A model generated the notes under the pieces. The model saw only the letters and a list, made by a program, of their open reading frames with translations, made no database searches and was not told where the DNA came from. From the IMG/VR virus record IMGVR_UViG_3300042892_004104: a stretch of 34,858 nt of DNA; one strand, written 5' to 3'. The position numbers and the translations under genes are program-made. Positions 10,256 to 26,632 of this stretch are shown piece by piece. The DNA is from a virus. Lineage: Duplodnaviria > Heunggongvirae > Uroviricota > Caudoviricetes. Within the stretch, counting starts at the first letter, position 1; every line of letters begins with the position of its first letter.

Positions 10256-12919
10256 ATGAGTTATATTGACAGTCTTTTTGATCGTGCCCACGATCGCATT
10301 CACGTGGTAGAACGCCGCAATGGTACCCGAGTCTACAGAGAATATCCAGCAAACTTTGTGTTCTACTATGATGACCCCAGAGGCAAACATCGTAGCATAT
10401 ATGACACACCAGTGTCAAGATTCAGTACCAAAAACAACAAAGAGTTTCGCAAAGAAGTCAGCATGCATTCCAGCAAGCAATTGTATGAAAGCGACATCAA
10501 TCCAATCTTTCGTTGTTTAGAAGACAACTACAAAGGACAAGATGCTCCGGACTTGCACACAGCATTTTTTGACATCGAAGTAGACTTCAACAAGGATCGC
10601 GGATTCTCACCTGTGGACGATCCGTTCAATCCCATCACTGCCATATCAGTGTACCTGAACTGGCTGGATCAAATGATCACCATGGCTGTGCCACCCAAGC
10701 ACATGAGCATGGAGACCGCACAAGAACTGGTTGCTGACTTTGACAACACATTCTTGTTTGAAGACGAGCGTGACATGATCAAGATGTTTCTGGACTTGAT
10801 TGACGACGCAGATGTCTTGAGTGGCTGGAACTCAGAAGGCTACGATATCCCCTACACCATCAACAGAACCATCCGAGTTCTCAGCAAGGATGATACTCGC
10901 AAGTTCTGTCTCTGGGGCCAACATCCCAAGAAACGCATGTTCGAACGCTTTGGTGCTGAACAAGAAACCTATGACCTGGTGGGACGAGTGCATATGGACT
11001 ATATGCAATTGTATCGCAAGTATACCTATGAAGAACGTCACAGTTATAGTCTGGATGCCATTGCTGAATACGAACTGGGCGAGCACAAGACACAGTTTGA
11101 AGGCACTCTGGATCAGTTATACAATCAACACTTCAAGAAGTTTATTGAATACAACCGCCAAGATACTGCACTCTTGGACAAACTGGACAAGAAACTGCGC
11201 TTCCTAGAACTGGCCAATGAACTGGCACATGCCAACACTGTGCTACTGCAGACCACAATGGGTGCTGTGGCAGTGACTGAGCAGGCTATTATTGTGGAAG
11301 CACATGAACGTGGCATGGTTGTGCCCAACCGCAAGCAACGCAACGATACAGAAGACAATCAAGCAGCCGGTGCCTATGTTGCGTATCCCAAAAAAGGTCT
11401 GCATGAATGGGTGGGATCAGTTGACATCAACAGCTTGTATCCTTCAGCCATTCGGGCACAGAACATGGGGCCGGAAACTATCGTGGGACAGTTGCGCCAG
11501 ACCATGACTGATCATTACATTCGAGAAAAGATGGCCAAGAACGGGGGCAAGTTTGCAGATGCCTGGGAGAACTTGTTTGGCAGTCTTGAATACACCGCTG
11601 TGATGAATACAGAGGTTGGCACAGAGATCACTATTGACTGGCAAGACGGCTCAGAAAGCACACATTCAGCAGCAGAGATCTGGAAACTGATCTTTGACAG
11701 CCACCAGCCCTGGATACTCACTGCCAATGGCACTATTATCACCTACGAGAAAAAAGGTATTATTCCCGGATTGCTGGAACGTTGGTATTCAGAACGCAAG
11801 GACATGCAGGCCAAGAAAAAAGCAGCAACAGATCCCAAGGACATTGCGTTCTGGGACAAGCGACAACTGGTCAAGAAGATCAACTTGAACAGCTTGTATG
11901 GTGCTATCTTGAATCCTGGCTGTAGATTTTTTGACAAACGCATTGGACAATCAACCACACTCACAGGTCGTGCAATTGCTCGACACATGGATGCATACAT
12001 CAACGAGTGTATCACTGGCAAATATGATCACGTGGGTGAAGCAGTTATCTATGGAGACACAGACTCGTGCTATTTTAGTGCATGGTCTGTGTTGAAAAAC
12101 GAAGTAGAACAAGGTCGCATGACCTGGAGCAAGGAAACTTGCATTGCCTTGTATGATTCAATTGCAGATCAGGTGAATGATTCGTTCCCAGGCTTTATGG
12201 AGCAGGCATTTCATTGTCCGCGAGACATGGGCGAGCTGATCAAGTGTGGTCGTGAGATGGTTGCAGATCGCAGCCTGTTTATTACCAAGAAGCGTTATGC
12301 TGTGAACATCATTGACCTCGAAGGCAAGCGGCTGGATGTCGACGGCAAGATTGGCAAGACCAAGGCCACTGGCCTGGATCTAAAACGCAGTGACACTCCC
12401 AAGGTCATTCAAGAGTTCTTGTTGGAAATTCTAAACAAGATCTTGAGTGGTACACAACGTGACGATGTGATTGAACATATTCGCAAGTTCAAGTATGAGT
12501 TCATGGAGCGGCCAGGTTGGGAGAAAGGTTCACCCAAGCGTGTGAACAACTTGACCAAGTATGGTGCTGCGGAAGCAGCGCAAGGTCGAGCCAACATGCC
12601 AGGTCATGTGCGAGCTGCCTTAAACTGGAACAACATGCGAAAGATGAACGGCGACAACTACAGCATGCAGATTGTGGATGGCATGAAAACCATTGTGTGC
12701 AAGCTCAAGTCAAATGCGCTGGGCTGGACTTCAATTGGATATCCCACAGATGAACAACGCTTGCCCACCTGGTTTACAGAACTGCCATTTGACAACAGTC
12801 TAATGGAAGCCACAGTTGTGGATCAAAAGATTGACAACCTGCTGGGCGTACTGGAATGGGATCTGGCGTCTGTGACCAACACTGACAACACATTTACAAA
12901 TTTATTTTCTTTTGAATGA
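10256..12919 (+). CDS. 43: Family B DNA polymerase (T4 gp43-like)
   Basis: ExoI FFDIEVD, ExoII GWNSEGYDIPY, ExoIII YNRQD, polymerase motifs DINSLYPS, KINLNSLYG, YGDTDS, KKRYA; no intein. Confidence 0.97.
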   Translation: MSYIDSLFDRAHDRIHVVERRNGTRVYREYPANFVFYYDDPRGKHRSIYDTPVSRFSTKNNKEFRKEVSMHSSKQLYESDINPIFRCLEDNYKGQDAPDLHTAFFDIEVDFNKDRGFSPVDDPFNPITAISVYLNWLDQMITMAVPPKHMSMETAQELVADFDNTFLFEDERDMIKMFLDLIDDADVLSGWNSEGYDIPYTINRTIRVLSKDDTRKFCLWGQHPKKRMFERFGAEQETYDLVGRVHMDYMQLYRKYTYEERHSYSLDAIAEYELGEHKTQFEGTLDQLYNQHFKKFIEYNRQDTALLDKLDKKLRFLELANELAHANTVLLQTTMGAVAVTEQAIIVEAHERGMVVPNRKQRNDTEDNQAAGAYVAYPKKGLHEWVGSVDINSLYPSAIRAQNMGPETIVGQLRQTMTDHYIREKMAKNGGKFADAWENLFGSLEYTAVMNTEVGTEITIDWQDGSESTHSAAEIWKLIFDSHQPWILTANGTIITYEKKGIIPGLLERWYSERKDMQAKKKAATDPKDIAFWDKRQLVKKINLNSLYGAILNPGCRFFDKRIGQSTTLTGRAIARHMDAYINECITGKYDHVGEAVIYGDTDSCYFSAWSVLKNEVEQGRMTWSKETCIALYDSIADQVNDSFPGFMEQAFHCPRDMGELIKCGREMVADRSLFITKKRYAVNIIDLEGKRLDVDGKIGKTKATGLDLKRSDTPKVIQEFLLEILNKILSGTQRDDVIEHIRKFKYEFMERPGWEKGSPKRVNNLTKYGAAEAAQGRANMPGHVRAALNWNNMRKMNGDNYSMQIVDGMKTIVCKLKSNALGWTSIGYPTDEQRLPTWFTELPFDNSLMEATVVDQKIDNLLGVLEWDLASVTNTDNTFTNLFSFE

Positions 12920-13860
12920 AACTAAGCGAAATAGTAGCATATTTGAATCTGCTGGAATCTCTGCAGGTGCATGAAGAGGCCAGCGAAGCCACACGTAAAC
13001 TGGCCGCTGTGTTGCATGTGGTAGCAAATCATGCAGTGCAGGTCAACACTTGCAGTCAAGATCTTGAACAAGACTTTGACGCAGTAAAGACTGCTCTTGA
13101 TAGTTTTGATACCACACTGACTCAAATAAAACAACGGCTAACTCAGATGCTGCATGAACAAGAGCCTGCGTACTTAACTGAAAGTTTTAGACTGTTTGAT
13201 CAAGAGATGCGACACGACAGCGTAACATACACATTGAGTCGTCGTCTTGCAATTGATGCAGAATCTAACATTGTGTTGAGATTTCGATTGAAAAATTTAA
13301 CCGACTGGCGCTGGCCTGGCATGATTATCGGCCCGGGTACAGAAACTTTTATTGAAGACCTAGTGCCATTGGATCCGTTGTATGTTGTGGACCAGCATGC
13401 AGATCTAATGTTGCCATCGGTGCAGAAGTTTACGGTGGAGTATCAGCGAAGATTGCGTCAGTATGTGGTACATGATCATGTACCACAGCCAATCTTGAAC
13501 GAGTTGCCCAATGGCCAATTTGGTTTGATATTTGCCTACAACTACTTTAACTATCGCCCTATGGAAGTGATTCGACGATATCTGCAAGAGATTGCTGTCA
13601 AACTCAGACCAGGCGGCACGTTTATTATGACCTACAACAACTGCGATCGTGCACATGGTATTGGTCTTGCTGAACGATCCTGGATGTGCTACACTCCAAA
13701 AAGACTGATAGTTGCTGTCGCTGAATCACATGGGCTTGAACTAGTGAATAGCCATGACGCTTCTGGAGATGTCAGCTGGCTGGAATTTGTTCGGCCAGGC
13801 GAACTAGAAACCTTACGAGGCGGCCAAAGCCTTGCCAAAATAATTGCTATCTCGCAATAA
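12916..13860 (+). CDS. Class I SAM-methyltransferase-like protein with N-terminal coiled coil
   Basis: MIIGPG (degenerate motif I), LPNGQFGLIFAYNYFNY, KLRPGGTFIMTY; ATGA overlap with the polymerase. Confidence 0.65.
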   Translation: MKLSEIVAYLNLLESLQVHEEASEATRKLAAVLHVVANHAVQVNTCSQDLEQDFDAVKTALDSFDTTLTQIKQRLTQMLHEQEPAYLTESFRLFDQEMRHDSVTYTLSRRLAIDAESNIVLRFRLKNLTDWRWPGMIIGPGTETFIEDLVPLDPLYVVDQHADLMLPSVQKFTVEYQRRLRQYVVHDHVPQPILNELPNGQFGLIFAYNYFNYRPMEVIRRYLQEIAVKLRPGGTFIMTYNNCDRAHGIGLAERSWMCYTPKRLIVAVAESHGLELVNSHDASGDVSWLEFVRPGELETLRGGQSLAKIIAISQ

Positions 13861-13891: not shown

Positions 13892-14614
13892 ATGAAAGAC
13901 TGTCTTAAAGACTTGGTAGAACACACATTTGATCTAGGCTGCATTGACCTGGTCAAGATCACTGGCACGGATGCCGACACTGAGATTTCGGCCTTGGCCG
14001 AAGACCTAAGTGTTGTGGTGCAAGCAAAGTTTCACAACCCTGTGGCTGACTTTGTGGGCACATTTGGCATGCCTAATCTGGGCAAACTCAAGACCCTGCT
14101 GAACTTGCAGGAGTATCGTGAAGATGCCAAACTCAGCATCACTCGCAGAGTCGGTGGCGAACTAGATGGCATCAACTTTGAAAACAAAGCAGGTGATTTC
14201 AAGAACAACTATCGTTTCATGGCCGAGGGCATTGTAAATGAAAAGCTCAAGACTGCTAAATTTCGTGGAGCCAATTGGCACATTGAGTTTGAACCAACCA
14301 ATGCTGCCATTCAACGACTCAAATGGCAAATGAGTGCCAACGCAGAAGAACCCAATTTCCAGGCCAAGACCGAAAACGGCGATCTCAAATTCTTCTTTGG
14401 TGACCACAGTACCCATGCTGGTAACTTTGTGTTCCAGGCAGGAGTAACTGGTCAACTCAAGCGTTCCTGGTCATGGCCTGCCCGGCAGTTTGCTAGTATC
14501 ATGGATTTAACTGGCGACAAAGTTGTTCGCATCAGCGACGACGGTGCAGCACAGATCACTGTGGATTCTGGCATGGCAGTGTACAACTACATTCTGCCTG
14601 CACAGAGCAAGTGA
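13892..14614 (+). CDS. 45: DNA polymerase sliding clamp (gp45/PCNA-like)
   Basis: About 240 aa, two-domain beta-alpha-beta pattern, C-terminal YNYILPA, position near the polymerase. Confidence 0.7.
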   Translation: MKDCLKDLVEHTFDLGCIDLVKITGTDADTEISALAEDLSVVVQAKFHNPVADFVGTFGMPNLGKLKTLLNLQEYREDAKLSITRRVGGELDGINFENKAGDFKNNYRFMAEGIVNEKLKTAKFRGANWHIEFEPTNAAIQRLKWQMSANAEEPNFQAKTENGDLKFFFGDHSTHAGNFVFQAGVTGQLKRSWSWPARQFASIMDLTGDKVVRISDDGAAQITVDSGMAVYNYILPAQSK

Positions 14615-14823
14615 TGGAAACCAAAAAAAGAACCATAGTCAGAATGCTGACTTATAGATTAACTGCTTGGTCATTTACTATACTATGGACTTATATGTTT
14701 ACAGGCAACATTGCCAATGCCACGGGATTTGCTACTGCACTACACATTCTTTTAAGCGTTGACTATTACATTCATGAACGAATTTGGCTCAAAATCAAAT
14801 GGGGTCAAGTTGACTCAAGATAA
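14614..14823 (+). CDS. DUF2061-like small membrane protein
   Basis: R....K/R..TYR...two hydrophobic helices...YYIHERIW..IKWG signature. Confidence 0.7.
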   Translation: METKKRTIVRMLTYRLTAWSFTILWTYMFTGNIANATGFATALHILLSVDYYIHERIWLKIKWGQVDSR

Positions 14824-15010
14824 TCTTATTGATCCGCTAACCAGGTACCGGGTATTACAAGAAGAAATAAGTATTCTTCAAGAACGTGTGCGCCCAACTG
14901 ACACTGGGCACATACGTACTACAATTAGTCAATTGAGAGAACGTTGTGAAGAAATTGAAAATCAGCTTTCTCCTGATATAAAAACCTGGGTGTTATTAAA
15001 TAAAAAATGA
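14810..15010 (+). CDS. Hypothetical protein
   Basis: Probable TTG start; RPTDTGHIRTTI motif; ATGA overlap with dpdA. Confidence 0.5.
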   Translation: MTQDNLIDPLTRYRVLQEEISILQERVRPTDTGHIRTTISQLRERCEEIENQLSPDIKTWVLLNKK

Positions 15011-16701
15011 CCAAACAAGATAATCTCACTGCCAAGCAGAACGACTATGCTGTGTTTCTGCCAGCCATTTCCGGTTTCTATGCCACCTTTGTGGGCAAAC
15101 AACGCAACGAGCCGTATGTAGATCCTGCAAGATTTCCACAGGGATTGACAGACATGGAACAGCTGAACTGGCTCAACAGTCAGAAGGCATTGTTTCCATA
15201 TCAATGGAGTTTGTATTCAGCAGGACATGCCAACTTGGATTTGACCAAACAAGATTGGTCTGAGGACATGGTTCGTAATCGCGAACCAGGCACGTTCATG
15301 CTGGGTGACTCTGGTGGATTCCAAATTGCCAAAGGTTTGTGGGAAGGTGAATGGCGTGATCCAACCAGTCAAGCAGTACAAGACAAAATGGCTGCATTGA
15401 TTGCACAAGGTCCAACTGAGGTGATCAATGCCAAAGGTAAAAAAATCAAAAAAGACCCAGCAGCTGACTATCAAAAGTTGTTGGATGCTGCTCAGAAAAA
15501 ACGTGACACAGTGTTGCGTTGGTTAGACAGCATTGCGGACTATGGAATGATTCTTGATATTCCTACCTGGGTCATACACGATAAAAAATCCAGCCAGGCC
15601 TGTGGTATTAGCACACTAGATGAAGCTGTTGCAGCAACCAAATACAACAACTTGTATTTTATGGCACACCGTCGAGGTGCCAAAGAAGGTGGAGCCCGGT
15701 TCTTGAATGTGTTGCAAGGCGATGGTCATGCCAGTGCCGAAGACTGGTATCAGGAAATGAAAGAATTTTGTGATCCTGCTGTGTATCCCAGCACACACTT
15801 TGACGGCTGGGCCATGGGCGGACAAAACATGTGCGATGTTCAACTGATACTGACTCGACTGGTTGCACTTCGTTATGACAATCTGTTACAGCAAGGAGTG
15901 CATGATTGGATGCACTTCTTGGGAACATCAAAGTTGGAATGGGCTGTGCTACTCACCGTGATTCAAAGGGCTGTTAGAAAATACGTTAATCCGAGTTTTA
16001 CTATATCCTTTGATTGTGCCAGCCCATTCCTCGCCACAGCCAATGGTCAGGTGTATTATGAGAATGTGTTCGAACATGATTCAAAATGGTCATATCGCAT
16101 GGCACCTGTGTTGGATGACAAAAAGTATTCACAAGATACTCGCAAGTGGAGTGCGGGATTGTTGGCTGATCTGCCGAGCACAAGTAATATCAAAAACTGG
16201 CAAGACAGTCCCATCAGTGACATGCTCAAGATGAAAGATATTTGCATCTACGGACCAGGTGATCTAAATAAAAATGGCAAAGAAGGCAAAACATCGTGGG
16301 ACAGTTTTAGTTATGCGCTGCTCATGGGTCACAATGTTTGGATGCACTTGACTGCTGTGCAGGAAGCCAACAGACGTTTTGATGCAGGAGAACACCCTGC
16401 TATGATGCAACGTGACGGCGGCGATTACGAGTATTTTGAAAACATTGTAGAAGAAATTTTTTCAGCACCAGACAGAGCCAGTGCTATGGCTGTTATTGAA
16501 CGGCCTGCTTACACAGGCAAGACTGGTTACTGGAATCAGATTGTTGGCACCCGTGGATTCAAGGGCAAAAACACCACCAACTCTCATAGCCAATTTAATG
16601 CGCTGTTTGATTTAGAGCAAACCGATATTGACGATAATGCAGACGATAGTGTACAATTGAATGAAGCAGCACTAACACAACTAGAACAGGATCAGACATG
16701 A
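15007..16701 (+). CDS. dpdA: TGT-superfamily transglycosylase, most likely DNA 7-deazaguanine-inserting DpdA
   Basis: Full TGT catalytic series DSGGFQ, ILDIP, VLQG, GWAMGG, HFLG, SFDCASP and late HN; lacks the CxCxxC zinc motif of tRNA TGTs; clustered with folE/queD/queE. Confidence 0.85.
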   Translation: MTKQDNLTAKQNDYAVFLPAISGFYATFVGKQRNEPYVDPARFPQGLTDMEQLNWLNSQKALFPYQWSLYSAGHANLDLTKQDWSEDMVRNREPGTFMLGDSGGFQIAKGLWEGEWRDPTSQAVQDKMAALIAQGPTEVINAKGKKIKKDPAADYQKLLDAAQKKRDTVLRWLDSIADYGMILDIPTWVIHDKKSSQACGISTLDEAVAATKYNNLYFMAHRRGAKEGGARFLNVLQGDGHASAEDWYQEMKEFCDPAVYPSTHFDGWAMGGQNMCDVQLILTRLVALRYDNLLQQGVHDWMHFLGTSKLEWAVLLTVIQRAVRKYVNPSFTISFDCASPFLATANGQVYYENVFEHDSKWSYRMAPVLDDKKYSQDTRKWSAGLLADLPSTSNIKNWQDSPISDMLKMKDICIYGPGDLNKNGKEGKTSWDSFSYALLMGHNVWMHLTAVQEANRRFDAGEHPAMMQRDGGDYEYFENIVEEIFSAPDRASAMAVIERPAYTGKTGYWNQIVGTRGFKGKNTTNSHSQFNALFDLEQTDIDDNADDSVQLNEAALTQLEQDQT

Positions 16702-17195
16702 AGCGTGAAGGACATCAGGACGTCAAGTTGTTTCGTGGTATTGAAGTAGAAAAAACTCCTGCATACGGCAAGAAGACGCTGTTTGTGGTAGGTGTTCAGC
16801 CCACTGATCACATAGCTTCAAATTTGGAAAATTGTGAGCACATCTTTTTTGGTGCCAATCACAGTTTTGATCCTCAAGATAATCTGGACTGGGCACGTTG
16901 GGAAGGCATGATTGGACATTTTCTTGCCAAAGGATATTTGTGCAGTCTTGATATCCCAATGAGCGCTGTGGAAGAATTTCACGAAAACGGTTTGTGTGAG
17001 TACCGAAACTTTATTCCGCAGATCAGGGTAAGCGTTCCATACACCAAGTTGTGGAACTATAACACAATGATCAAGATTGACGACAACGACTTTGACGCTA
17101 CCAATCCTGGTGTTTGGTGTCATAGTTTGCACAGCTTGATGAGCAGAGAAACATTCACTGACTGGGATCAGTACAACAAGGACCAAACCATATGA
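16698..17195 (+). CDS. Hypothetical protein coupled between dpdA and dpdL
   Basis: ATGA overlaps on both sides; N-terminus loosely resembles the QueE N-terminus. Confidence 0.7.
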   Translation: MKREGHQDVKLFRGIEVEKTPAYGKKTLFVVGVQPTDHIASNLENCEHIFFGANHSFDPQDNLDWARWEGMIGHFLAKGYLCSLDIPMSAVEEFHENGLCEYRNFIPQIRVSVPYTKLWNYNTMIKIDDNDFDATNPGVWCHSLHSLMSRETFTDWDQYNKDQTI

Positions 17196-17635
17196 ACCAA
17201 CAACAAAGATCAACTGTAGATAGAATTATGTCGGCCGCTGAACGAAAAATTTGGGTAACTTTCTCTAAAGAAGGCATCCATTGCTATCCTGCTGCTGCAA
17301 CTGATCCTGCCTTGGCCACTGGCAATGAGTACGATGTCAGCTTTTTGGCCAATCCTCATCGCCATATATTTCACTTTAGAGTCTGGATTGATGTTGTACA
17401 CAACGATCGAGACATCGAATTCATTCAGTTCAAACGTTGGTTGGAAAATCTCTACAGAGATGGCACACTACAACTAGACTATAAATCTTGCGAAATGATG
17501 TCAGATGATCTGTACATTCAAATTGCAGCAAAGTATCCTGATCGTGCGGTCTGGATTGAGGTATCCGAAGATGGTGAAAACGGAGCTTTAATAAAATATC
17601 AAACTCACCGCCCTGTGCAATCTCTTGCAATTTAA
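17192..17635 (+). CDS. dpdL: QueD-like T-fold protein with LxxxHRHxF motif; probable CDG decarboxylase DpdL
   Basis: LANPHRHIF at 17345-17371, plus SCEMM and VSEDGENGA (QueD-like TSENLA and V.E). A canonical queD is present separately. Confidence 0.7.
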   Translation: MNQQQRSTVDRIMSAAERKIWVTFSKEGIHCYPAAATDPALATGNEYDVSFLANPHRHIFHFRVWIDVVHNDRDIEFIQFKRWLENLYRDGTLQLDYKSCEMMSDDLYIQIAAKYPDRAVWIEVSEDGENGALIKYQTHRPVQSLAI

Positions 17636-17645
17636 GGAAAAACAA

Positions 17646-17873
17646 ATGGCCAAGCCGCTTATCAAACCCAATCAACGTCTTACAGAAATCTTTGAGGATC
17701 TCGAACAATATCTGGAGTTCTGTCAGGACTACGGATACCGCTACAACGAAGCGGATCTCTACAACTTCAAGAGTTATGCCTGGCAACAGTTCAGCAAACA
17801 TGCTCAAGGCAAGAATGCCAAAAACATGTGGTGGGAAGACGCTCGTCGACTTGCAGGATTTCGTCCAGCATGA
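17646..17873 (+). CDS. Hypothetical protein
   Basis: SD AAGGA; ATGA overlap with the next gene. Confidence 0.65.
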   Translation: MAKPLIKPNQRLTEIFEDLEQYLEFCQDYGYRYNEADLYNFKSYAWQQFSKHAQGKNAKNMWWEDARRLAGFRPA

Positions 17874-18259
17874 GTGCCGCTCGTGAAAAAGATCAAGCAG
17901 ACTTTGATCTCGAGCGATTTGTTGACATGTTCGACGAAGCCATGACCAGTCAGGATCCGCGTGTGATGGATTCATTACGCAGTCTCATGATGATTGTGAC
18001 ACTGACTCGTCCTGAAACCAAAACAGCACACAGTCGCAATCACGGGCCTCTAAGAAGATTGTTCGAAGATATGAACCATCTAAATAGACGTATGCATGAC
18101 ATGGAAGACAAAGTCAATGCTATGAGTCGATCTGGTGATTCAGCTGAAAAATATGCATACACACAATACCCCAACGAAAAGTATGTCATGACTGCTACAC
18201 AAGCTATGGCAGCGCAAATTGATCGAGATGTATTGAACCGAGTACAAGGACTAAAATGA
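17870..18259 (+). CDS. Hypothetical protein with coiled coil
   Basis: ATGA overlaps on both sides. Confidence 0.65.
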   Translation: MSAAREKDQADFDLERFVDMFDEAMTSQDPRVMDSLRSLMMIVTLTRPETKTAHSRNHGPLRRLFEDMNHLNRRMHDMEDKVNAMSRSGDSAEKYAYTQYPNEKYVMTATQAMAAQIDRDVLNRVQGLK

Positions 18260-19458
18260 GAAAACTATTTTATTGTGGTTTGGAGTCGTATGAAGCAAGG
18301 TACACTCTACAACTCACCGAATGGAACCGTAGAGTATTTGACCGTAGAGGGTTGGATGTAGTCTATGTGCCTGGCGAAACCCTAGACAACAGCAAGAGCA
18401 TTGTGGTGGGTCAGGTGCTGGACGCACATGGTCGCAGTTATTTTGGCATGAGCCAAATGATGAATCTGGTTCGAATGATGCGCGAAGGCGAAGTCACCAG
18501 TGAAGATGTGATCTACTTTGAAGACATGTTCCAACCAGGCATTGAGAGTTTGCCATACATCATGGACCAAATTCCCGCTAACATGCGACCACGTGTGTAT
18601 GTACGTTGTTTGGCACAGGCAATTGATCCTGATGACTTTGTTCATGTATGGGGCATGGAAAAGTGGATGGGCTTGTATGAAAAAATGGTCAATGAGTTTG
18701 TGACCGGTGTGCTTGCTACCAACGAAGAAATGGTTGCTCACATGCGTATTGCAGGTTGGACTGCTCCTATCTACAACATCTCAGGACTAGCATTTGGCAA
18801 GGCTGAAGTTCTGGAACGCATTGGTGGTGCAGAAAAAGTCCGACCATTTGAAGAACGCAAGCGGCGTGTGGGTTTTGCAGCTAGGTTTGATCAAGAAAAG
18901 CAGCCGGGCTTCTTCATGGATCTGATTGAGATGTATGGTGAACTTACTAACGAGCCTTGTGAGTTTGCTATCTACTCCGGCGGTACATTGCGCAGCAACA
19001 ATCCTGAATTTGTGACCCGTGCTAGACGAATGGAAGCAGCCGGTAAATTAAAAATCTACGACAACATCACAAAAAATGATTACTACTCTCACCTTAATGA
19101 TACTCGTGTGCTGTTTAATTGCGCCCTGCAAGATTGGGTTTCCAACACAGTCAGTGAAGCAGATACTCTTGGCTGTAATGTTCTATACCCTGCTTATAGG
19201 TCTTTCCCTGAAACTTTTTCTAATGACCCTAACAGGCTCTATGTTCCTTGGAGCATAGATGATGCTTATCACAAGATGCAGAACTTGTTGCGTGAACCAC
19301 ATCACAACATGGGCTTGATCAGTAACTGGAACAACGGCACAGTTGATCGCGTAATCGATATCATTGAAGGCAAGGGCGAACAATGGAATCGTGCTGGCAA
19401 TCGATATCGTGATCATGTGGCACAAGACAAATATCATGTGAGAAAGATTGAATCATGA
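18256..19458 (+). CDS. GT-B fold (GT4-like) glycosyltransferase, 400 aa
   Basis: GFAARFDQEKQP (GR...K motif) and QDWVSNTVSEADTLGCNVLYP (E.f....lEA..G.pv motif). Confidence 0.8.
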   Translation: MRKLFYCGLESYEARYTLQLTEWNRRVFDRRGLDVVYVPGETLDNSKSIVVGQVLDAHGRSYFGMSQMMNLVRMMREGEVTSEDVIYFEDMFQPGIESLPYIMDQIPANMRPRVYVRCLAQAIDPDDFVHVWGMEKWMGLYEKMVNEFVTGVLATNEEMVAHMRIAGWTAPIYNISGLAFGKAEVLERIGGAEKVRPFEERKRRVGFAARFDQEKQPGFFMDLIEMYGELTNEPCEFAIYSGGTLRSNNPEFVTRARRMEAAGKLKIYDNITKNDYYSHLNDTRVLFNCALQDWVSNTVSEADTLGCNVLYPAYRSFPETFSNDPNRLYVPWSIDDAYHKMQNLLREPHHNMGLISNWNNGTVDRVIDIIEGKGEQWNRAGNRYRDHVAQDKYHVRKIES

Positions 19459-20402
19459 GCACTGTTGTAGTCACTGGCGCCGCTGGCTACATTGGCGGGC
19501 AAATTGCCTTACAGCTCAAGGATGCAGGGCACGCCATAACAGGGATTGATCGTAGACCCCTGCCAACGCATCTTACAGGTGTTATGGATTTTGTGCAAGC
19601 AGACTTTGACTGTAATGAATCCTTCAGGAAACTGCTTGATGTCAGGCCAGATGCTGTTGTACACTGTGCTGGTTCCAGCCTGGTTGGCCCCAGCATGAAA
19701 ACTCCCAGCGACTACTATCACAACAACATGGCCAGAACCATGCACCTGTTGGACTTTGTGTTGGCAGCCATGCCACAGACTAGAATTATTTTTAGTTCAA
19801 GCGCCGCGGTGTACGGTGAGCCAGTTATGGCTAATTGTCACGAAGTTGATCCCAAAGAACCTATCAGTCCTTATGGCGAAAGCAAGCTGATGATTGACTG
19901 GATGCTGGAAGCATACCGACGTGCGTATGGTCTTGATTATGTCAGCTTTCGTTATTTCAATGCGTGTGGAGCTGATGCTCAAAAGCGACATGGTCAAGAA
20001 CCTGGTGCTACTCACATTATTGCGCGAGTTTTAGAATGTTTGCGTGATGACGCTGAGTTCACACTGAATGGCACCAACTATCCCACGCCGGATGGCACCT
20101 GCATTCGCGACTATGTACATGTGGAAGACATTGCTCGAGCTCATGCTCTTGCTCTAGATCGTGCTGTGCCAGCTGGAGTATATAATCTAGGTTCTGGTAC
20201 AGGCATCAGCAACCGAGAAATCATTGCTGCGGCAGAACGCATCACTGGCAAAGAACTAAAAATTATATCCGGTAAACAACGTGACGGTGATCCTCCGTTG
20301 TTAACCGCCAGTGCAGGCAAGTTTAATTCAGTAGCAGATCAGTGGCAACAACATGATCTTGACGCCATGATCGGTCATGCCTGGGCTTGGTATGTTCGAT
20401 AA
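19455..20402 (+). CDS. galE: UDP-glucose 4-epimerase-like extended SDR
   Basis: TGAAGYIG, FSSSAAVYG, YGESK, RYFNACGA, GTCIRDYVHVEDIA. Confidence 0.9.
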   Translation: MSTVVVTGAAGYIGGQIALQLKDAGHAITGIDRRPLPTHLTGVMDFVQADFDCNESFRKLLDVRPDAVVHCAGSSLVGPSMKTPSDYYHNNMARTMHLLDFVLAAMPQTRIIFSSSAAVYGEPVMANCHEVDPKEPISPYGESKLMIDWMLEAYRRAYGLDYVSFRYFNACGADAQKRHGQEPGATHIIARVLECLRDDAEFTLNGTNYPTPDGTCIRDYVHVEDIARAHALALDRAVPAGVYNLGSGTGISNREIIAAAERITGKELKIISGKQRDGDPPLLTASAGKFNSVADQWQQHDLDAMIGHAWAWYVR

Positions 20403-20979
20403 GATTCTAAAGTTTGAACATGCGCTGGCAGAGTTCACTGGCGCACCTTATGTGATCATGACTGATTGCTGCACACATGCCATTGAACTTTGTCTACGCC
20501 ATGATCGAGTACGAAGCTGTAGCTTTACTGCATTTACCTATCTGAGTGTGGCCATGACCATGCACAAGCTGGGCATCAAATACAGCTTGGAAAATGAAGA
20601 CTGGACTGGTGAGTATCACATTCATGACACTCGAATCTGGGACAGCGCTCGACGACTGGAAAAGAACATGTATCGACCTGGCGCTATGCAGTGTCTGAGT
20701 TTTGGCCACGGCAAACCTCTGCACATTGGCCGAGGTGGTGCTATCTTGCTGGATGACCCAGCCGCATACAAGACCATGATCCGTCAACGATATGATGGTC
20801 GCGACCTCGATATCACACCCTGGCAAGCACAACACACATTTCAAGTTGGTTATCACTACAAGCCCACACCCGAAGAAGCTGTTCAAGGCCTGGCCATGTT
20901 AGAAGGTATCAAAGAACAGGGCTGTGTGCCTGTGCCTGTCGCTTACCCAGATTTAAGAAACATTACCATAGTAGATTGA
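20392..20979 (+). CDS. Compact DegT/DnrJ/EryC1/StrS-like PLP-dependent sugar aminotransferase (195 aa)
   Basis: FE..LAEFTGA...CTHAIELCL, WDSAR, CLSFGHGKPLHIGRGGAIL (PLP Lys), GYHY; about half the usual length. Confidence 0.7.
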   Translation: MFDKILKFEHALAEFTGAPYVIMTDCCTHAIELCLRHDRVRSCSFTAFTYLSVAMTMHKLGIKYSLENEDWTGEYHIHDTRIWDSARRLEKNMYRPGAMQCLSFGHGKPLHIGRGGAILLDDPAAYKTMIRQRYDGRDLDITPWQAQHTFQVGYHYKPTPEEAVQGLAMLEGIKEQGCVPVPVAYPDLRNITIVD

Positions 20980-21045: not shown

Positions 21046-21885
21046 TTGACAAAAGAATTTGTACCAGAAAAAATATTACGCAACACAGCTGAATTTGCGC
21101 CAGATCAACTACTACATCCTGTAGCCGAATCAAAAACACATAACAATATCATTGCAGGTGCAGAGCAACAAGGCGATGACGATAAAGATTATAAAGAAGC
21201 ATACCTAGGTGATCATCTTCGCTTCAAGATGAAACGTGAAGGCAAACGTTTCTGGGCAGGCGATAACATCAGCGAATATGTCACAGAAGAAAATAAAGAA
21301 CGCTTGATCGACGAAGCAGCCGAAGCATTTGAAACAGTGCTGGATCGACTGCTTATTGATCGAGAAACAGATCCCAACTCAAAAGGCACAGCAAGGCGCC
21401 TGGCCAAAATGTATTTTAAGGAGATCATGGAAGGTAGATATGAACCAGCACCAGACGCAACAGCGTTCCCAAATGATAGTGAAGACCGTTATGAAGGTAT
21501 GCTTGTTGTTCGAAGCGAGCTTCGTTCTATGTGTAGCCATCATCATCAACCCGTTAGCGGCGTTGCTTACATTGGTATTATTGCTGCTAATAAACTTATT
21601 GGTCTGTCTAAGTATACTCGCATTGCTCAGTGGTGTGCTCGCCGGGGCACACTTCAAGAAGAACTGTGTAATGACATTGCCCGAGAAATCTCCAAAGCTA
21701 CCGACAGTGAAAACGTAGCAGTGTATATTCAGGCCACACATGGCTGCTGTGAGAATCGCGGCATCATGGCACATTCAAGTCTAACACAGACCACAGTGCT
21801 CAAAGGTGCATTCAAGATGGACCAAGGTGTCAAGAAAGAATTCTTTGACAATATCAAACTACAACAGGACTTTGCACCACGATGA
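21046..21885 (+). CDS. folE: GTP cyclohydrolase I
   Basis: TARRLAKMY, SMCSHH, GLSKYTRI, LQEEL, HGCCENRG; TTG start with SD GGAG. Confidence 0.95.
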   Translation: MTKEFVPEKILRNTAEFAPDQLLHPVAESKTHNNIIAGAEQQGDDDKDYKEAYLGDHLRFKMKREGKRFWAGDNISEYVTEENKERLIDEAAEAFETVLDRLLIDRETDPNSKGTARRLAKMYFKEIMEGRYEPAPDATAFPNDSEDRYEGMLVVRSELRSMCSHHHQPVSGVAYIGIIAANKLIGLSKYTRIAQWCARRGTLQEELCNDIAREISKATDSENVAVYIQATHGCCENRGIMAHSSLTQTTVLKGAFKMDQGVKKEFFDNIKLQQDFAPR

Positions 21886-22277
21886 CTGATTTAGAACAAG
21901 CAATGCAGGACAAAATTGCTCCCTGGAACTTGGAAGTCTCTGAGTTAACAGATTTTCATGTGGCTGTGTTTCAGGATCGATATCCGGTGACTCATGGTCA
22001 CTTGTTGTTTGTACCCAAATACAATACTGCGGGAGTGATCCAGGATTGTTTTGAATCTGCCATGGCCGAAGGCAACCGAATGGTCGCAGCCGGCGAATGC
22101 GATGCATTCAACGTGGGTATGAACTCGGGTGCTGCTGCTGGACAAACAGTGATGTATCCGCATATACATCTGATTCCCAGGCGTACAGGCGACTGCACAG
22201 ATCCTGTGGGCGGTGTGCGTGGTGTTATTGCAGGCCAGGCCAACTACAAACAACCCGGCTATCAACAGCCGTCATAA
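21882..22277 (+). CDS. HIT-family nucleotide hydrolase
   Basis: DRYPVTHGHLLFVPK, FNVGMN.G.AAGQTVMYPHIHLIPRR (first triad His replaced by Tyr). Confidence 0.85.
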   Translation: MTDLEQAMQDKIAPWNLEVSELTDFHVAVFQDRYPVTHGHLLFVPKYNTAGVIQDCFESAMAEGNRMVAAGECDAFNVGMNSGAAAGQTVMYPHIHLIPRRTGDCTDPVGGVRGVIAGQANYKQPGYQQPS

Positions 22278-22356: not shown

Positions 22357-22908
22357 ATGGCAAACTCATCAGTCGACTTAATCCGTCATTTAGAAGAAAA
22401 CTTACAAAACACTAGACCAGTGAACTATAGGTACACCAGCACCAAAGAGTATCACGACTCTTTTCCCTGCGCTTATAGACAATGGCGGGCTGATAGTCAC
22501 TGTAATCTAATACACGGCTACAGCTTCAACATGAAGTTTTACTTTGGTACCAATGATCTGGATGCTCGCAACTGGGCTGCTGACTATGGCGGGCTTAAAG
22601 AACTCAAGGCTGTACTAGAAAGTCAATTTGATCACACTCTGCTGGTGGCCGAAGACGATCCTGAACTGGCATTTTACAAAGAAATGGAACAGCGCAAGTT
22701 GGCCAAACTGACAATTCTGCCTAAGCTGGGTTGTGAAGGTCTGGCAGATCAGCTGTACAAGTATGTGAATGGTGTTTACATTCCTGACATGTGGGGCCAA
22801 GCCGAGTCCAATCGCTTGTGGTGCTATCGTGTGGAAGTTCGCGAAACACAAGCCAACATGGCGTTCCGCGAAGGACATCGTGAGTGGAATGAAGATTTAT
22901 TTGCGTGA
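22357..22908 (+). CDS. queD: 6-carboxy-5,6,7,8-tetrahydropterin synthase
   Basis: SHCNLIHGYS, DYGGLKELK...QFDHTLL, GCEGLA, VEVRET. Confidence 0.9.
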   Translation: MANSSVDLIRHLEENLQNTRPVNYRYTSTKEYHDSFPCAYRQWRADSHCNLIHGYSFNMKFYFGTNDLDARNWAADYGGLKELKAVLESQFDHTLLVAEDDPELAFYKEMEQRKLAKLTILPKLGCEGLADQLYKYVNGVYIPDMWGQAESNRLWCYRVEVRETQANMAFREGHREWNEDLFA

Positions 22909-23126
22909 GAAAACTAGCAACAGGTGCTGAAGTTCCTGATCTGGACAAGGCTGTGACACTCACAATCAAAACCAAGTGTCCTGCCAAGTGGATGCTGGTT
23001 GACATGGAAACTAGCGAAATGTATTCTCCATACGATACTCCTGGAAAACTGCAATGGAAAAAAATTGATCAAGATCAACATCCAGTGCTGAAACTTTTAA
23101 AGATTTATCCAAATGAAAAAATATAA
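22905..23126 (+). CDS. Hypothetical protein
   Basis: GTGA overlap with queD; TIKTKCPAKWMLVDMET motif. Confidence 0.55.
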   Translation: MRKLATGAEVPDLDKAVTLTIKTKCPAKWMLVDMETSEMYSPYDTPGKLQWKKIDQDQHPVLKLLKIYPNEKI

Positions 23127-23967
23127 CATAGCAATTTTGCTGCCTACTCGTGGCAGAACACATGCGTTGGATCGCAGTGTACGTACCTTGATCGACAACG
23201 CACATGACATAAAGAATGTACAGATCATGTTTGGATTTGATCGCGACGACACAGTGGGACTTGATTATTTTCGCACCAGTCTCCAACCCAAACTGGATCA
23301 ACAGGGTGTGGATTATGTGGCTGTGCAGTTTAATCCCCTGGGCTATATCAACATCAACCGATATGGCAATATCTTGGCCGAACATGCTGACGCAGACTGG
23401 TACATGTTCTGGAACGACGATGCTATTATGGAGACAGCTGAGTGGGACAGAATGATCGGCGAACGCACTGGTGAGTTTCGACTGTTGGCGGTGCACACTC
23501 ACAATGATCACCCTTACAGCATTTTTCCCATTGTGCCTGCAGAGTGGATGGACATTCTTGGCCACTTGAGTCCGCATCAAATGATTGACGCTTGGTTGAG
23601 TCAACAGGCCTACATGTTGGACATCATGGACCGACTAGAAATCTATGTCACCCACGATCGTCATGATCTCACTGGCAACAATGCTGACGCCACGTTCAAA
23701 GGACGTATAGCACTGGAAGGCCGTCCTCATGATCCTGTAGACTTCCATCATATCTCCAACACTAAACGTCGCATGGCAGAATGTGAAAAACTTGCAGTTT
23801 ACATGCGATCTCTAGGCACGGATACTGCCTGGTGGGATAGCGTCAAAGCTGGTACACAAGATCCCTGGGTCAAACTCAAAGATTTTGATACCAATCATCA
23901 GATGGTACAGTTCAACATGAAAGTTGATCCTGCCAGTGGCCAAGTAAATTATACTCCTGACCAATGA
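23113..23967 (+). CDS. GT-A fold (GT2-like) glycosyltransferase
   Basis: IAILLPTRGR, MFGFDRDD, YMFWNDDA (DxD-like), FPIV, MIDAWL. Confidence 0.75.
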   Translation: MKKYNIAILLPTRGRTHALDRSVRTLIDNAHDIKNVQIMFGFDRDDTVGLDYFRTSLQPKLDQQGVDYVAVQFNPLGYININRYGNILAEHADADWYMFWNDDAIMETAEWDRMIGERTGEFRLLAVHTHNDHPYSIFPIVPAEWMDILGHLSPHQMIDAWLSQQAYMLDIMDRLEIYVTHDRHDLTGNNADATFKGRIALEGRPHDPVDFHHISNTKRRMAECEKLAVYMRSLGTDTAWWDSVKAGTQDPWVKLKDFDTNHQMVQFNMKVDPASGQVNYTPDQ

Positions 23968-24374
23968 CCCAGAAAATCCACAGTCGATCCCAACCAGACA
24001 CTTTGTTAGCGTGTGTGATGTCAGCAGCTGACGCTGCAGGTCGCACGGACGCAGCAGATGCAGAAGAAATTTTACAAGCCAGTATTTTGCGATTGCCCAC
24101 TGGCAAAACTATTGCTCCGCACTGTCATCTGCCACAGGTGCGAACTACTACAGGCACCTGTGAAGCCTGGGTTGTGGTGTCGGGTCGTGTGGTAGCACAG
24201 GTGTTTGATCTTGACCAGTCACTGGTCGCAACTGTGGGATTGACTGCAGGCGACTGTATGATCTTGTATCGCGGTGGGCACAACTTCACAGTGGTATCTG
24301 TAGATGCTGTGATATACGAAATCAAAAACGGTCCCTACAACGGACCCAAAGCTGACTCGGAAAAAATTCAATGA
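23964..24374 (+). CDS. Cupin-fold protein (WbuC-like/sugar isomerase-like)
   Basis: APHCH...CEAWVVVSG...GGHNF...YEIKNGPY cupin H/H/E/H pattern. Confidence 0.7.
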   Translation: MTQKIHSRSQPDTLLACVMSAADAAGRTDAADAEEILQASILRLPTGKTIAPHCHLPQVRTTTGTCEAWVVVSGRVVAQVFDLDQSLVATVGLTAGDCMILYRGGHNFTVVSVDAVIYEIKNGPYNGPKADSEKIQ

Positions 24375-24943
24375 AAACACTGGTATTTGGATCCACAGGA
24401 GGTATTGGTTCCTGTGTGAGTGATCAATTGACTCAACAAGGACATCAAGTTGTAACTGTCACTCGTGCTGAGTTAGAATGCAGCAATGACTTTTTAGAAC
24501 AACAGATCTCTGATATCATTGCCCGAACGGAACCAGACTGGATATTCAACTGTATTGGTACGTTGGGCACCAATCAAAGCAGGTACCGAGAAGTATTTGA
24601 TGCCAACTTTGGTAGTGCCTGGGCCATTGTGCGACACTATATCGACCACCCTGATCAAGCAGTCAAAATTGTACTGACCGGAAGTGCTGTACACAATCAA
24701 CCTCGTCGCAATCTGGTGCTGTATGCTGCCAGCAAATCGGCACTGCACAACATGTGGCAAAGCACTGAAGACATATTTGCCGGAACCAATGTACACATTG
24801 CCTTGATACATCCTCCCAGAGTCAACACACCAATGTTGAATGGTAGACCAGGTGCCAGTTTGGAGCCAGAATACATGGCTCAGGTCATGATAGATTTGAC
24901 ACGCACAATGAAAAGTCGTACACTACTAGAACTAGGAACTTAA
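24371..24943 (+). CDS. Short-chain dehydrogenase/reductase
   Basis: GSTGGIG Rossmann motif, catalytic YAASK, IHPPRVNTPM. Confidence 0.85.
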   Translation: MKTLVFGSTGGIGSCVSDQLTQQGHQVVTVTRAELECSNDFLEQQISDIIARTEPDWIFNCIGTLGTNQSRYREVFDANFGSAWAIVRHYIDHPDQAVKIVLTGSAVHNQPRRNLVLYAASKSALHNMWQSTEDIFAGTNVHIALIHPPRVNTPMLNGRPGASLEPEYMAQVMIDLTRTMKSRTLLELGT

Positions 24944-24945
24944 CA

Positions 24946-25923
24946 ATGAAAACAGCATTTATTACAGGCATTGCAGGACAAGACGGCAGTTATTTGGCCG
25001 AACACCTGCTGGAACAGGGCTATAGAGTCACTGGCATCATTCGACGCAATTCAACTGTGGAGCATCAAAAGGATCGCATTGGCAATCTACCAGTGGAAGT
25101 GGAATACGGTGACCTAACTGATCAAAGCAGTCTGGAACGTGCACTGCGACTGTATCAACCCAATGAAATCTACAACCTGGGTGCACAAAGTCATGTGCGT
25201 ATCAGTAGCGACATTCCACAGTTTACCACACAGGTCAATGCCTTGGGTGTGATCAACATGTTGGAGGCCTATCGCACTGTGGTTCCCGAAGCTAGATTTT
25301 ATCAAGCTAGCAGCAGCGAGATGTTTGGATCCAGTGTGGATGCTGACAATTATCAGCGTGAGACCACTCCCATGCGACCGGTGAGCCCATATGGTTGTAC
25401 CAAGGTGTTTGCCTACAACATGGTACATCACTATCGCAAGGCCTACCGGTTGCATGCGTCAAACGGTATATTGTTCAACCATGAGAGCCCGCGCCGTGGC
25501 TCAAATTTTGTGACCAACAAAGTGGTCAAAGGTGCTGTGGAGATTGCTCTGGGCTTGAGTAACCAGTTGGAGATGGGCAATATGGACAGTTATCGTGACT
25601 GGGGTCACAGCTATGATTATGTGCGAGCCATGCACCTGATTACACAACAAGACCAACCTGACGACTTTGTGGTGTCCACTGGCATTACTAGATCTGTGCG
25701 AGACATGTGTGAATATGTATTTGGACAACTGGGATTGAATTATCAAGACCATGTGATTCAGAATCCTAAATACCTTCGCCCAGAAGAACTGCCTTACTTG
25801 CGTGGAGACAACACCAAGATTGTCAAGCAACTGGGATGGCAACTCACATACACATTTGAAGCACTCATGGACGAAATGATTGAGCACTGGCAACACATTT
25901 ACAGCCGACAACGCAACGATTAA
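24946..25923 (+). CDS. gmd: GDP-mannose 4,6-dehydratase
   Basis: ITGIAGQDGSYLAE, YNLGAQSHV, YQASSSEMFG, PVSPYG..K, NGILFNHESPRRG, RDWGH. Confidence 0.95.
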   Translation: MKTAFITGIAGQDGSYLAEHLLEQGYRVTGIIRRNSTVEHQKDRIGNLPVEVEYGDLTDQSSLERALRLYQPNEIYNLGAQSHVRISSDIPQFTTQVNALGVINMLEAYRTVVPEARFYQASSSEMFGSSVDADNYQRETTPMRPVSPYGCTKVFAYNMVHHYRKAYRLHASNGILFNHESPRRGSNFVTNKVVKGAVEIALGLSNQLEMGNMDSYRDWGHSYDYVRAMHLITQQDQPDDFVVSTGITRSVRDMCEYVFGQLGLNYQDHVIQNPKYLRPEELPYLRGDNTKIVKQLGWQLTYTFEALMDEMIEHWQHIYSRQRND

Positions 25924-25924
25924 C

Positions 25925-26632
25925 ATGAAAAAACTATTTACATTCGGATGTAGTTTTACCAACTATCGCTGGAGTACGTGGGCTAATTGTTTGGCCCCAG
26001 AATTTGATTATTTTGAAAATTGGGGGCAAGCCGGCGGCGGCAATCATTATATTTTTAATTCAGTAATGGAAGCGGATCAACGGTATTCATTTGGACCTGA
26101 CGATACTGTAGTAGTTTGTTGGACCAGCATTGATCGAGAAGACCGGTACATACAAGACAGATGGCACACACCGGGTAATGCATATTTTGCCAAGACAGTG
26201 TATCATCCAGACTATCTTCGATCTCACATTGATGAGCGAGGATTTTTAATTCGCGATCTGGCATACATCAAAGCTGTAAAAACTTTGTTAGAAAACCGGC
26301 CGGGCATAAACTGGAAATTTTTAAGCATGGTAGAACTAATGGCTCGACCTGTTGCCGACGACAATGTCAGTGTTTATAGAGATGTTATGAGACTGTATTC
26401 AGATGTGCTAGATACTATTTTGCCTGGATACGACAAAACTGTTTTTTTAAACAACTGGCCTAAACCAGGAGATGATCCACATCCCAGTCCCGAAGAACAT
26501 TTGGCTTATCTAGATGTAGTGTTGCCAGGTTGGGTGACAAAAGAATCAACTCGTGTTAAAATGCATGAGGAAAGTATTAATTTAACAAAAACCCCTGCAC
26601 GTTCAGGAATAGCAAAGGTAAAAAGATTATGA
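25925..26632 (+). CDS. SGNH-hydrolase-like protein
   Basis: TFGCSFT, NWGQAGGGN, WTSIDRED, DPHPSP.EH; ATGA overlap with queE. Confidence 0.6.
   Translation: MKKLFTFGCSFTNYRWSTWANCLAPEFDYFENWGQAGGGNHYIFNSVMEADQRYSFGPDDTVVVCWTSIDREDRYIQDRWHTPGNAYFAKTVYHPDYLRSHIDERGFLIRDLAYIKAVKTLLENRPGINWKFLSMVELMARPVADDNVSVYRDVMRLYSDVLDTILPGYDKTVFLNNWPKPGDDPHPSPEEHLAYLDVVLPGWVTKESTRVKMHEESINLTKTPARSGIAKVKRL

Follow-up and report, generated by a model that had tools for sequence, protein, structure and literature searches.

A DpdL-linked glycosyltransferase family in phage 7-deazaguanine modules and the possible occurrence of glycosylated 7-deazaguanine in phage DNA

Gene content of the module

The window analyzed here is a 34.9-kb (34,858-nucleotide) stretch of the 71.9-kb IMG/VR virus record IMGVR_UViG_3300042892_004104 (Caudoviricetes), whose CheckV completeness is ∼20% and whose close relatives are complete genomes of 343 to 353 kb with terminal repeats. 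It encodes a QueC-less, DpdL-type module for 7-deazaguanine modification of DNA, in which the genes for the transglycosylase DpdA and the T-fold protein DpdL are followed by genes for a 400-amino-acid (aa) glycosyltransferase (GT), a UDP-glucose 4-epimerase (GalE), and a short DegT-like protein (Table 1). The folE, queD, and queE genes are all located within 7 kb downstream of the last three. A real QueC was not found in GT-bearing phages, where short partial PP-loop matches were seen in 4 of the 19 large records and in 1 of the 4 close relatives. Deazaguanine systems of this kind are known, and what is new is the accessory enzyme family inside one of them.

An original prediction, made from the nucleotides of the window, had proposed that this GT may add a sugar to a deazaguanine base in DNA and had described an unbroken gene run starting at a promoter at position 13844, with ATGA start/stop overlaps at positions 15007, 16698, 17192, 17870, 18256, and 19455. 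All six overlaps were confirmed, and the plus-strand genes follow each other without a real gap from 13892 to 20979, but the promoter did not hold up: the site matches 9 of the 12 consensus positions, and such sites are no more numerous in this region than in shuffled sequence. Since all genes from ∼8.3 kb to the end of the window are on the plus strand, co-transcription alone is little evidence of a functional connection.

Table 1. Genes and gene sets of the module and its surroundings in the window
Feature	Position	Strand	Basis or remark
Family-B DNA polymerase (PolB)	10256-12919	+	
314-aa protein between PolB and the clamp-like gene	12916-13860	+	Weak methyltransferase-domain match (PF13649, E = 0.007)
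Sliding-clamp-like protein (phrog_12062)	13892-14614	+	Replisome end of the module
DpdA-family (TGT-fold) guanine transglycosylase, 564 aa	15007-16701	+	Fold and motif
165-aa protein between dpdA and dpdL	16698-17195	+	No family
DpdL, QueD-like T-fold protein (proposed 7-carboxy-7-deazaguanine [CDG] decarboxylase), 147 aa	17192-17635	+	phrog_17812
Small conserved open reading frame (ORF), 75-82 aa, between dpdL and the GT gene	17646-17873	+	No Pfam or PHROG match
Small lineage-specific ORF, 129 aa from ATG 17870	17870-18259	+	ATGA overlap at each end
DpdL-associated GT4-type GT-B glycosyltransferase, 400 aa	18256-19458	+	Fold, relatives, motifs
UDP-glucose 4-epimerase GalE	19455-20402	+	TIGR01179, 283.9 bits (cutoff, 262.3)
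Mini DegT/DnrJ/EryC1-like protein, 200 aa	20377-20979	+	PF01041, 53 bits, two stretches
FolE, GTP cyclohydrolase I	21046-21885	+	PF01227, E = 2e-39
HIT-family protein between folE and queD	21882-22277	+	ATGA overlap with folE
QueD-like 6-carboxytetrahydropterin (CPH4) synthase	22357-22908	+	PF01242, phrog_2389; motif CxxxHGY
Second, lineage-specific sugar set between queD and queE	23113-25923	+	GT (phrog_14945), WbuC-type cupin, short-chain dehydrogenase/reductase (short form, 190 aa), Gmd-like dehydratase
QueE-like radical SAM 7-carboxy-7-deazaguanine synthase	26629-27474	+	phrog_2076, E = 4.8e-53

DpdA and DpdL

The 564-aa ORF had no match in Pfam and no sequence match in PDB, and the PF01702 profile of tRNA-guanine transglycosylases (TGTs) matched neither this protein nor anything else across the whole 72-kb record. 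The X1 protein annotated as a queuine tRNA-ribosyltransferase is likewise without a PF01702 match, and the published DpdA3 and DpdA4 were recognized by HHpred rather than by plain hidden Markov model (HMM) searches (PMC10516641). The AlphaFold2 (AF2) model of the window protein, built with 28 relatives (pLDDT, 89.3), had TGTs as all of its top 50 Foldseek matches in PDB (probability, 1.00; E = 7e-8), and the residues D101-S-G-G, D184, and D336 are invariant among these relatives. The TGT/DpdA fold and the DSGG motif thus bear out the initial assignment of this ORF as dpdA. Its homologs are encoded by Pseudomonas jumbo phage PA5oct, Sinorhizobium phage Phosso, and Vibrio phage 2.275.O. In the DNA of Cellulophaga phage phiST, plain 2'-deoxy-7-deazaguanine (dDG) replaces all G (PMC10516641); the DNA of PA5oct contains a modified G whose chemistry was not determined, resists cutting at G-containing restriction sites, and is a target of nucleases recognizing hypermodified DNA (PMC12191111). 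From these two cases, we infer that the window DpdA probably acts on DNA and not on tRNA.

The identification of the 147-aa ORF as DpdL was upheld by tblastn similarity to the DpdL proteins of ACP17 (56% identity, E = 6e-38) and phiST (CGPG_00067; 35% identity, E = 5e-10) and by the sequence LxxxHRHxF (L52, H56, R57, H58, and F60), which is the published DpdL signature in place of CxxxHGH (PMC10516641). The invariant His/Glu set is also present. A looser form of the motif, [LIVMF]xxxH[RK]Hx[FYW], was detected in 154 of 158 DpdL-family ORFs. Another domain architecture is found in Vibrio phage Bakedbeans, where DpdL forms the C-terminal third of the 383-aa protein gp176 (locus L173, 7212-8363), whose N-terminal ∼260 residues have no family match.

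The glycosyltransferase family

The window GT had no match in Pfam (E ≤ 0.01), PHROGs, or NCBIfam, so its family assignment required relatives and fold. The AF2 model (pLDDT, 94.8; pTM, 0.92) has a GT-B fold with two Rossmann-like domains, with Foldseek matches at E = 1e-12 to BshA, MshA, and PimA and tied VIA Z scores of 26 to 27 to MshA, BshA, and sucrose-phosphate synthase (range for the best matches, Z = 26.9 to 24.5, with root mean square deviations of 3.3 to 4.0 Å over 314 to 339 residues). When relatives were compared with PF00534 and PF13692, the former (Glycos_transf_1) was matched by 47 of the 70 aligned proteins, with the best E value of 4.5e-10. In the VGRL..FKGP motif of MshA, the Arg and Lys correspond to R210 and K215 of the window protein, and D293 and E301 align to the two Glu residues of the MshA NE-x7-E motif, position 293 being Asp in nearly all family members. 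Conservation is high in the N-terminal (acceptor) domain, where many aromatic and acidic residues are invariant. With the diphosphate-binding R/K pair and the D-x7-E motif retained, the protein may well be catalytically competent, and its early description as a GT-B enzyme can be refined to a GT4-type GT-B glycosyltransferase.

Two narrower assignments were rejected. A relationship to the tRNA-queuosine mannosyltransferase QTMAN was suggested by Atlas QTMAN_N clusters (0.97), but PF12038 matched none of the 70 relatives and QTMAN was not among the top Swiss-Prot fold matches. The pterin glucosyltransferase BGluT scored no better than generic GT4 enzymes (Z = 23 to 24) and was absent from the profile-versus-PDB matches. 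A complex prediction for the GT with DpdL returned a score of 0.00, which is no verdict and counts neither for nor against binding.

At 90% identity, the family falls into at least ∼8,000 clusters, and 789 representatives remain at 50%. Its members abound in metagenomes and are almost confined to phage DNA. Among viral models ranked against the GT, an ACP17 protein and one other viral protein came first (E = 1e-17 to 1e-21), and the next one followed at 1e-10.

Linkage of the GT to dpdL

The genomic context was examined in 84 diverse viral loci, comprising 4 distant metagenomic members of the GT family chosen blind to context and 80 loci from a scan seeded on distant members; the GTs are 27 to 35% identical to the distant seed P0224, and the flanks were screened with iteratively built HMMs. 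When single-linkage clustering was applied at the 50% level, 151 GTs merged into a single chain, so that the result is unusable as a lineage count. A dpdL gene adjoins the GT gene in all 4 distant metagenomic members and is found in the fetched flank of 77 of the 84 loci, in 32 of them within 200 bp of the GT gene; dpdA, folE, and queE are found in the flanks of 61, 59, and 53 loci, respectively. In two of the seven exceptions, dpdL lies farther away in the same record (79 of 84 in total); the remaining five loci are on small fragments or on contigs with the GT gene at their edge. Among cellular genomes (one for each of 185,579 prokaryote species), only four GT loci were detected, all on short contigs of metagenome-assembled genomes (MAGs) or isolates, and each has dpdL within ∼500 bp of the GT gene. 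As dpdL is rare (29 of 50,697 phage records), its linkage to the GT cannot be due to chance, and the co-occurrence check proposed with the original prediction showed a near-perfect association of the GT family with dpdL and dpdA in phages that differ greatly from each other.

The order of these genes is variable. HMMs placed the GT gene inside the clusters of PA5oct (dpdA-GT-dpdL), ACP17 (dpdA-GT-dpdL-queE), X1 (GT-dpdA-dpdL), BUCT-ZZ01 (dpdA-dpdL-GT), Phosso (dpdL-GT), and BCSR5 (GT-dpdA, ∼2.7 kb downstream of dpdL); in BUDD, whose order is that of X1, the GT gene was placed by tblastn 1.6 kb from dpdL. Vibrio phage 2.275.O, which encodes the same DpdA type along with genes of the QueF/QueC route, lacks both DpdL and the GT. 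The GT tracks DpdL rather than the DpdA clade. Conversely, DpdL is present without the GT in the phiST group, and no GT was found in RHph_I1_18, Bakedbeans, Ahp1, and D479 at distances of up to 8 kb from dpdL. Because phiST has plain dDG in its DNA, the GT is an add-on to the DpdL route and not a requirement for dDG as such. The DpdA type of GT-bearing phages is longer than that of phiST.

Several sugar-related genes accompany the GT in particular lineages. GalE, whose identity follows from a score above the equivalog cutoff of TIGR01179, is encoded directly downstream of the GT in 88 loci (28 of them among the 84 diverse loci), and this adjacency spans two cluster layouts, down to 52% GT identity and ∼36% GalE identity. 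It is absent in the more distant GT lineages, which makes GalE a sub-clade-specific donor supplier; the suggestion that it provides the donor is supported in the sub-clade of the window and not in those lineages, which would rely on host sugars. In Burkholderia phage BCSR5 (locus L175, 8375-10652) and Xanthomonas phage X1 (locus L002, 6338-7526), the GT gene lies beside genes for a PAPS-reductase-like PP-loop protein and a PIG-L/LmbE-like de-N-acetylase. BUCT-ZZ01-like clusters (14 diverse loci) encode a second, different GT (Glyco_trans_1_4, 447 aa; locus L001, 9010-10353) next to folE/dpdA.

Comparison with characterized systems

The dDG system of phiST resembles that of the window in its QueC-less FolE/QueD/QueE set, a DpdL with the LxxxHRHxF signature, and a TGT-fold transglycosylase (PMC10516641). 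Both also have a small gene between dpdA and dpdL. However, phiST lacks the GT, GalE, and any further sugar genes, its DpdA3 (259 aa) has no detectable similarity to the 564-aa DpdA, and its middle gene, CGPG_00066, encodes a P-loop kinase-like protein unrelated to the product of the ORF at 16698-17195.

The α- and β-glucosyltransferases of T4 and other phage DNA GTs share with the window enzyme the GT-B fold, the use of a nucleoside diphosphate (NDP)-sugar donor, and a location in a phage DNA-modification gene set. These enzymes act on 5-hydroxymethyl or 5-hydroxy pyrimidines, whereas the partner base here would be a purine analog, and no thymidylate-synthase-type hydroxymethylase was found in the complete relatives. 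A cyanophage "DNA α-GT" ranks only 44th among the viral models, and no T4 enzyme is among the top PDB matches, so the resemblance to T4 glucosyltransferases in the original prediction comes down to the generic GT-B fold.

A GT4-type enzyme (PF13439) that acts on a deazapurine is HuiG, the huimycin GT of Kutzneria albida, which N-glycosylates the 2-amino group of a 7-deazapurine base using UDP-GlcNAc (PMC7439116; bioRxiv 10.64898/2026.04.15.718813). By its description, it is similar to the window GT in being of the GT4 type, in being encoded beside FolE/QueD/QueE-type genes, and in the 7-deazaguanine-derived base. Unlike the phage systems, HuiG belongs to secondary metabolism, is encoded in clusters without DpdA, and acts on a free base after QueC and O-methylation. 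QTMAN (GTDC1), the tRNA-queuosine α-mannosyltransferase, is a GT4-type GT-B enzyme that does act on a 7-deazaguanine derivative within a nucleic acid, but its acceptor is a hydroxyl of the queuosine cyclopentenediol in tRNA. In MshA/MshB and BshA/BshB, a GT4 GlcNAc transferase is paired with a PIG-L/LmbE de-N-acetylase, as the GT is paired with a PIG-L-like protein in X1 and BCSR5. The latter pairs recall the MshA/MshB and BshA/BshB logic of GlcNAc transfer followed by deacetylation; the acceptors of MshA and BshA are inositol phosphate or malate, not a base.

Proposed function and alternative explanations

The observed folds, motifs, and gene linkage allow the following pathway to be proposed. 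FolE, QueD, and QueE would produce CDG, DpdL would remove its carboxyl group, and the TGT-fold DpdA would exchange the resulting base into DNA. The GT would be a dedicated accessory enzyme of the retaining GT4 type that uses an NDP-sugar donor, most likely UDP-Gal or UDP-GalNAc supplied by the adjacent GalE in the sub-clade of the window, and puts the sugar on the deazaguanine of the DpdL route, giving virion DNA with glycosylated 7-deazaguanine. The probability of this deazaguanine being glycosylated by the GT and of the sugar residing in DNA can be put at about 0.55, the identity of the acceptor and the location of the sugar being the conjectural parts. Sugar transfer on DNA, after the action of DpdA, is slightly favored over transfer to the free base before insertion, because the clusters are found among replication genes and because TGT-type pockets recognize the 2-amino group; direct precedent is limited to HuiG, which uses the free base. 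Candidate attachment atoms could be N2, by analogy with HuiG and huimycin, or a position near C7/C8, which is hinted at by the exclusive tie of the GT to DpdL, whose product is set apart from other deazaguanines solely by its bare C7.

Several points weigh against this interpretation. Plain 7-deazaguanine has no hydroxyl group, which makes the acceptor atom a guess, and the glycosylated nucleoside of GT-bearing phages is a prediction from gene content. The first Glu of the EX7E motif is replaced by Asp almost throughout the family, the Pfam GT profiles miss the window protein, and the nearest structures are those of small-molecule GT4 enzymes (BshA, MshA, SenB, LmbT, and BGluT) and not of DNA glucosyltransferases. 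The acidity of the GT family (median isoelectric point, 5.7), taken as a proxy for DNA binding, could be listed here as well, but the DpdA family is equally acidic, so this property does not discriminate. In addition, phiST makes dDG with DpdL and no GT, and the decarboxylase role of DpdL is unproven even for its founding members, which failed in Escherichia coli (PMC10516641).

An alternative in which the sugar never reaches DNA is that the acceptor of the GT is a free small molecule from the pathway, either a deazapurine base or a pterin intermediate, and that the product serves, for example, as an antimetabolite or for storage or is a by-product that has been detoxified. We consider this unlikely. 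It would agree with the predominance of small-molecule GT4 enzymes among the best structural matches, which include tetrahydrobiopterin glucosyltransferases at Z = 23 to 24, with the nature of DpdL as a PTPS/QueD-like T-fold protein handling pterin- or purine-like bases, and with the frequent overlap of the GT and dpdL genes, and HuiG does glycosylate a free deazapurine base (bioRxiv 10.64898/2026.04.15.718813). BGluT, however, is no closer to the window enzyme than generic GT4 proteins and is missing from the sequence-profile matches, and the clusters nearly always encode DpdA and QueE as well and lie among replication genes, a setting that fits a DNA end product. We also know of no role that a free glycoside would have in a phage. 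A rather improbable variant is that the GT helps to make or insert plain dDG and leaves no sugar in DNA, acting through a transient glycosyl intermediate or as a noncatalytic partner of DpdA or DpdL. The longer DpdA type of GT-bearing phages could be taken in its favor, as could the finding that dpdL and dpdA of ACP17, between which its GT gene is located, alone gave no dDG in E. coli (PMC10516641); yet dpdL and dpdA3 of phiST failed in the same experiment even though phiST lacks the GT (PMC10516641), which makes the ACP17 failure uninformative. Conservation of the NDP-sugar motifs in the GT also speaks against a helper role, and the donor-supplying GalE and sugar-trimming PIG-L genes that travel with the GT argue for a lasting sugar product.

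The possibility raised in the original prediction that the GT builds an unrelated glycan (of the capsid, tail, or host envelope) and is merely co-transcribed with the deazaguanine genes was close to refuted. The phage does have other sets of sugar genes, at 2277-8124 and 23113-25923, and the whole region is a single plus-strand block. Still, the GT gene adjoins dpdL in phages of cyanobacteria, Pseudomonas, Xanthomonas, Acidovorax, Burkholderia, and Sinorhizobium and on MAG contigs labeled Alistipes, Treponemataceae, and Altiarchaeales, with shuffled gene orders, whereas the second GT (GT2, phrog_14945), the HIT protein, and the mini-DegT of the window do not travel with it, being found in just 3 to 6 of the 84 loci. 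As to pyrimidine acceptors, PF00303, which covers thymidylate-synthase-type hydroxymethylases, had no match in the 72-kb record and four close relatives (three complete and one 89% complete), in agreement with the original remark that no pyrimidine hydroxymethylase is encoded in the window; Tet_JBP (PF12851) had no match in the relatives either, a weak negative given that this model matched no control genome. The co-occurrence of the GT with dpdL and the lack of a thymidylate-synthase-type rival acceptor together make the unrelated glycan very unlikely. The same two observations partly support the deazapurine acceptor in DNA that had been suggested at the outset, while glycosylated deazaguanine itself can so far only be predicted.

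Implications

To our knowledge, DNA glycosylation is known only on modified pyrimidines, and no 7-deazaguanine modification reported to date bears more than a small C7 group. Literature searches found no glycosylated deazaguanine in DNA among the papers covered, as had been noted originally, and the founding DpdL paper is silent on the GT adjoining dpdL in ACP17 (PMC10516641). It appears an even bet that a large group of phages abundant in the environment (including freshwater and marine giant phages, T4-like cyanophages, and cultured phages such as PA5oct, ACP17, X1, BCSR5, and Phosso) has glycosylated 7-deazaguanine in DNA, made by this DpdL-coupled GT4 family, with sub-clade-specific donors and trimming giving varied sugar decorations. 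Such decorations would be generated via GalE in the window, PIG-L in X1 and BCSR5, and the second GT in BUCT-ZZ01-like clusters. If so, this would be the first sugar-bearing purine analog described in any genome and a new class of natural DNA base, in which a deazapurine sugar unites two antirestriction strategies. It would also bear on why END nucleases see PA5oct-type DNA as "hypermodified," possibly on the failed reconstitution of dDG from ACP17 genes, and on the behavior of such DNA in sequencing, restriction, and CRISPR cleavage. As several host-phage pairs are in culture, the prediction is directly testable.

Neighboring genes and minor observations

The order of genes in the window (PolB, the 314-aa protein, the clamp-like gene, and two small ORFs, followed by the dpdA-GT-GalE block) agrees with that in PA5oct (PolB, the clamp-like gene, the DpdA-like gene, a gene for a 353-aa protein, dpdL, queE, and RNase H) and likewise with that in Phosso. 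A megablast comparison of the region with phage records gave no near-identical match. The product of the clamp-like gene could be a sliding clamp, an assignment offered as a lead only: an Atlas feature search placed it with gp45/PCNA clusters (0.93 to 0.98), and its homologs follow PolB in PA5oct and Phosso, the latter copy being annotated as a clamp. Its more likely start is ATG 13892, downstream of AAGGAG.

The small ORFs of the block differ in their distribution. The 165-aa ORF had no relative in Pfam, PHROG, or Atlas; its homologs are present in 21 of the 84 diverse loci and, in ACP17, are encoded upstream of dpdA. Homologs of the ORF that follows dpdL were found in 35 of these loci, within 200 bp of the GT gene in 21 of them, and those of the lineage-specific ORF preceding the GT gene were found in 16 loci only. 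Pfam gave no match for an ORF that adjoins dpdL in RHph_I1_18 and carries a macro-domain annotation.

The DegT-like aminotransferase of the original prediction turned out to be a remnant-like mini-protein of doubtful activity, which falls short of a full-length fold-type I pyridoxal phosphate enzyme. Against the PDB chain, its residues 8-67 cover positions 38-100 and its residues 105-181 cover positions 180-252 (profile/chain coverage, ∼24-100 and 180-260), and in comparison with the ∼370-aa family, ∼75 internal residues and the C-terminal domain are missing. This short form is nevertheless kept in 80 loci; by-eye reading places K113 within an SFxxxK-like motif. Homologs of the HIT-family protein are encoded in just 6 of the 84 diverse loci.

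The sugar genes between queD and queE, where the region (23113-26632) also contains a 235-aa ORF of no known family, look like a GDP-6-deoxyhexose branch. The Gmd-like dehydratase scored 364 bits against a cutoff of 415. This set was seen only in near relatives, the GT2 homolog being found in 3 of the 84 diverse loci. Another group of genes, on both strands at 2277-8124, encodes two DUF6492 proteins, a PIG-L de-N-acetylase (3137-3676), a methyltransferase-like protein, and a radical SAM/SPASM enzyme; this PIG-L is encoded 15 kb from the GT and is unrelated to those of BCSR5 and X1.

The phage QueD has the CxxxHGY motif in place of the canonical CxxxHGH, which was found in 5 of 100 QueD-like ORFs of the fetched loci. 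Many GT/DpdL clusters, among them those of BUCT-ZZ01 and PA5oct, have next to queE a gene for a small protein with a phosphoribosyltransferase domain (PF00156; locus L001, 7093-7554; locus L003, 12946-13377; 40 of the 84 diverse loci). This gene, which the 72-kb record of the window lacks, hints at a nucleotide-level branch such as that in tubercidin/toyocamycin biosynthesis. Just 3' of queE in the window, at 28073-29283, are genes for an RfaE-domain-II-like nucleotidyltransferase (of the sugar-phosphate adenylyl/cytidylyl type) and a DUF6071 protein.

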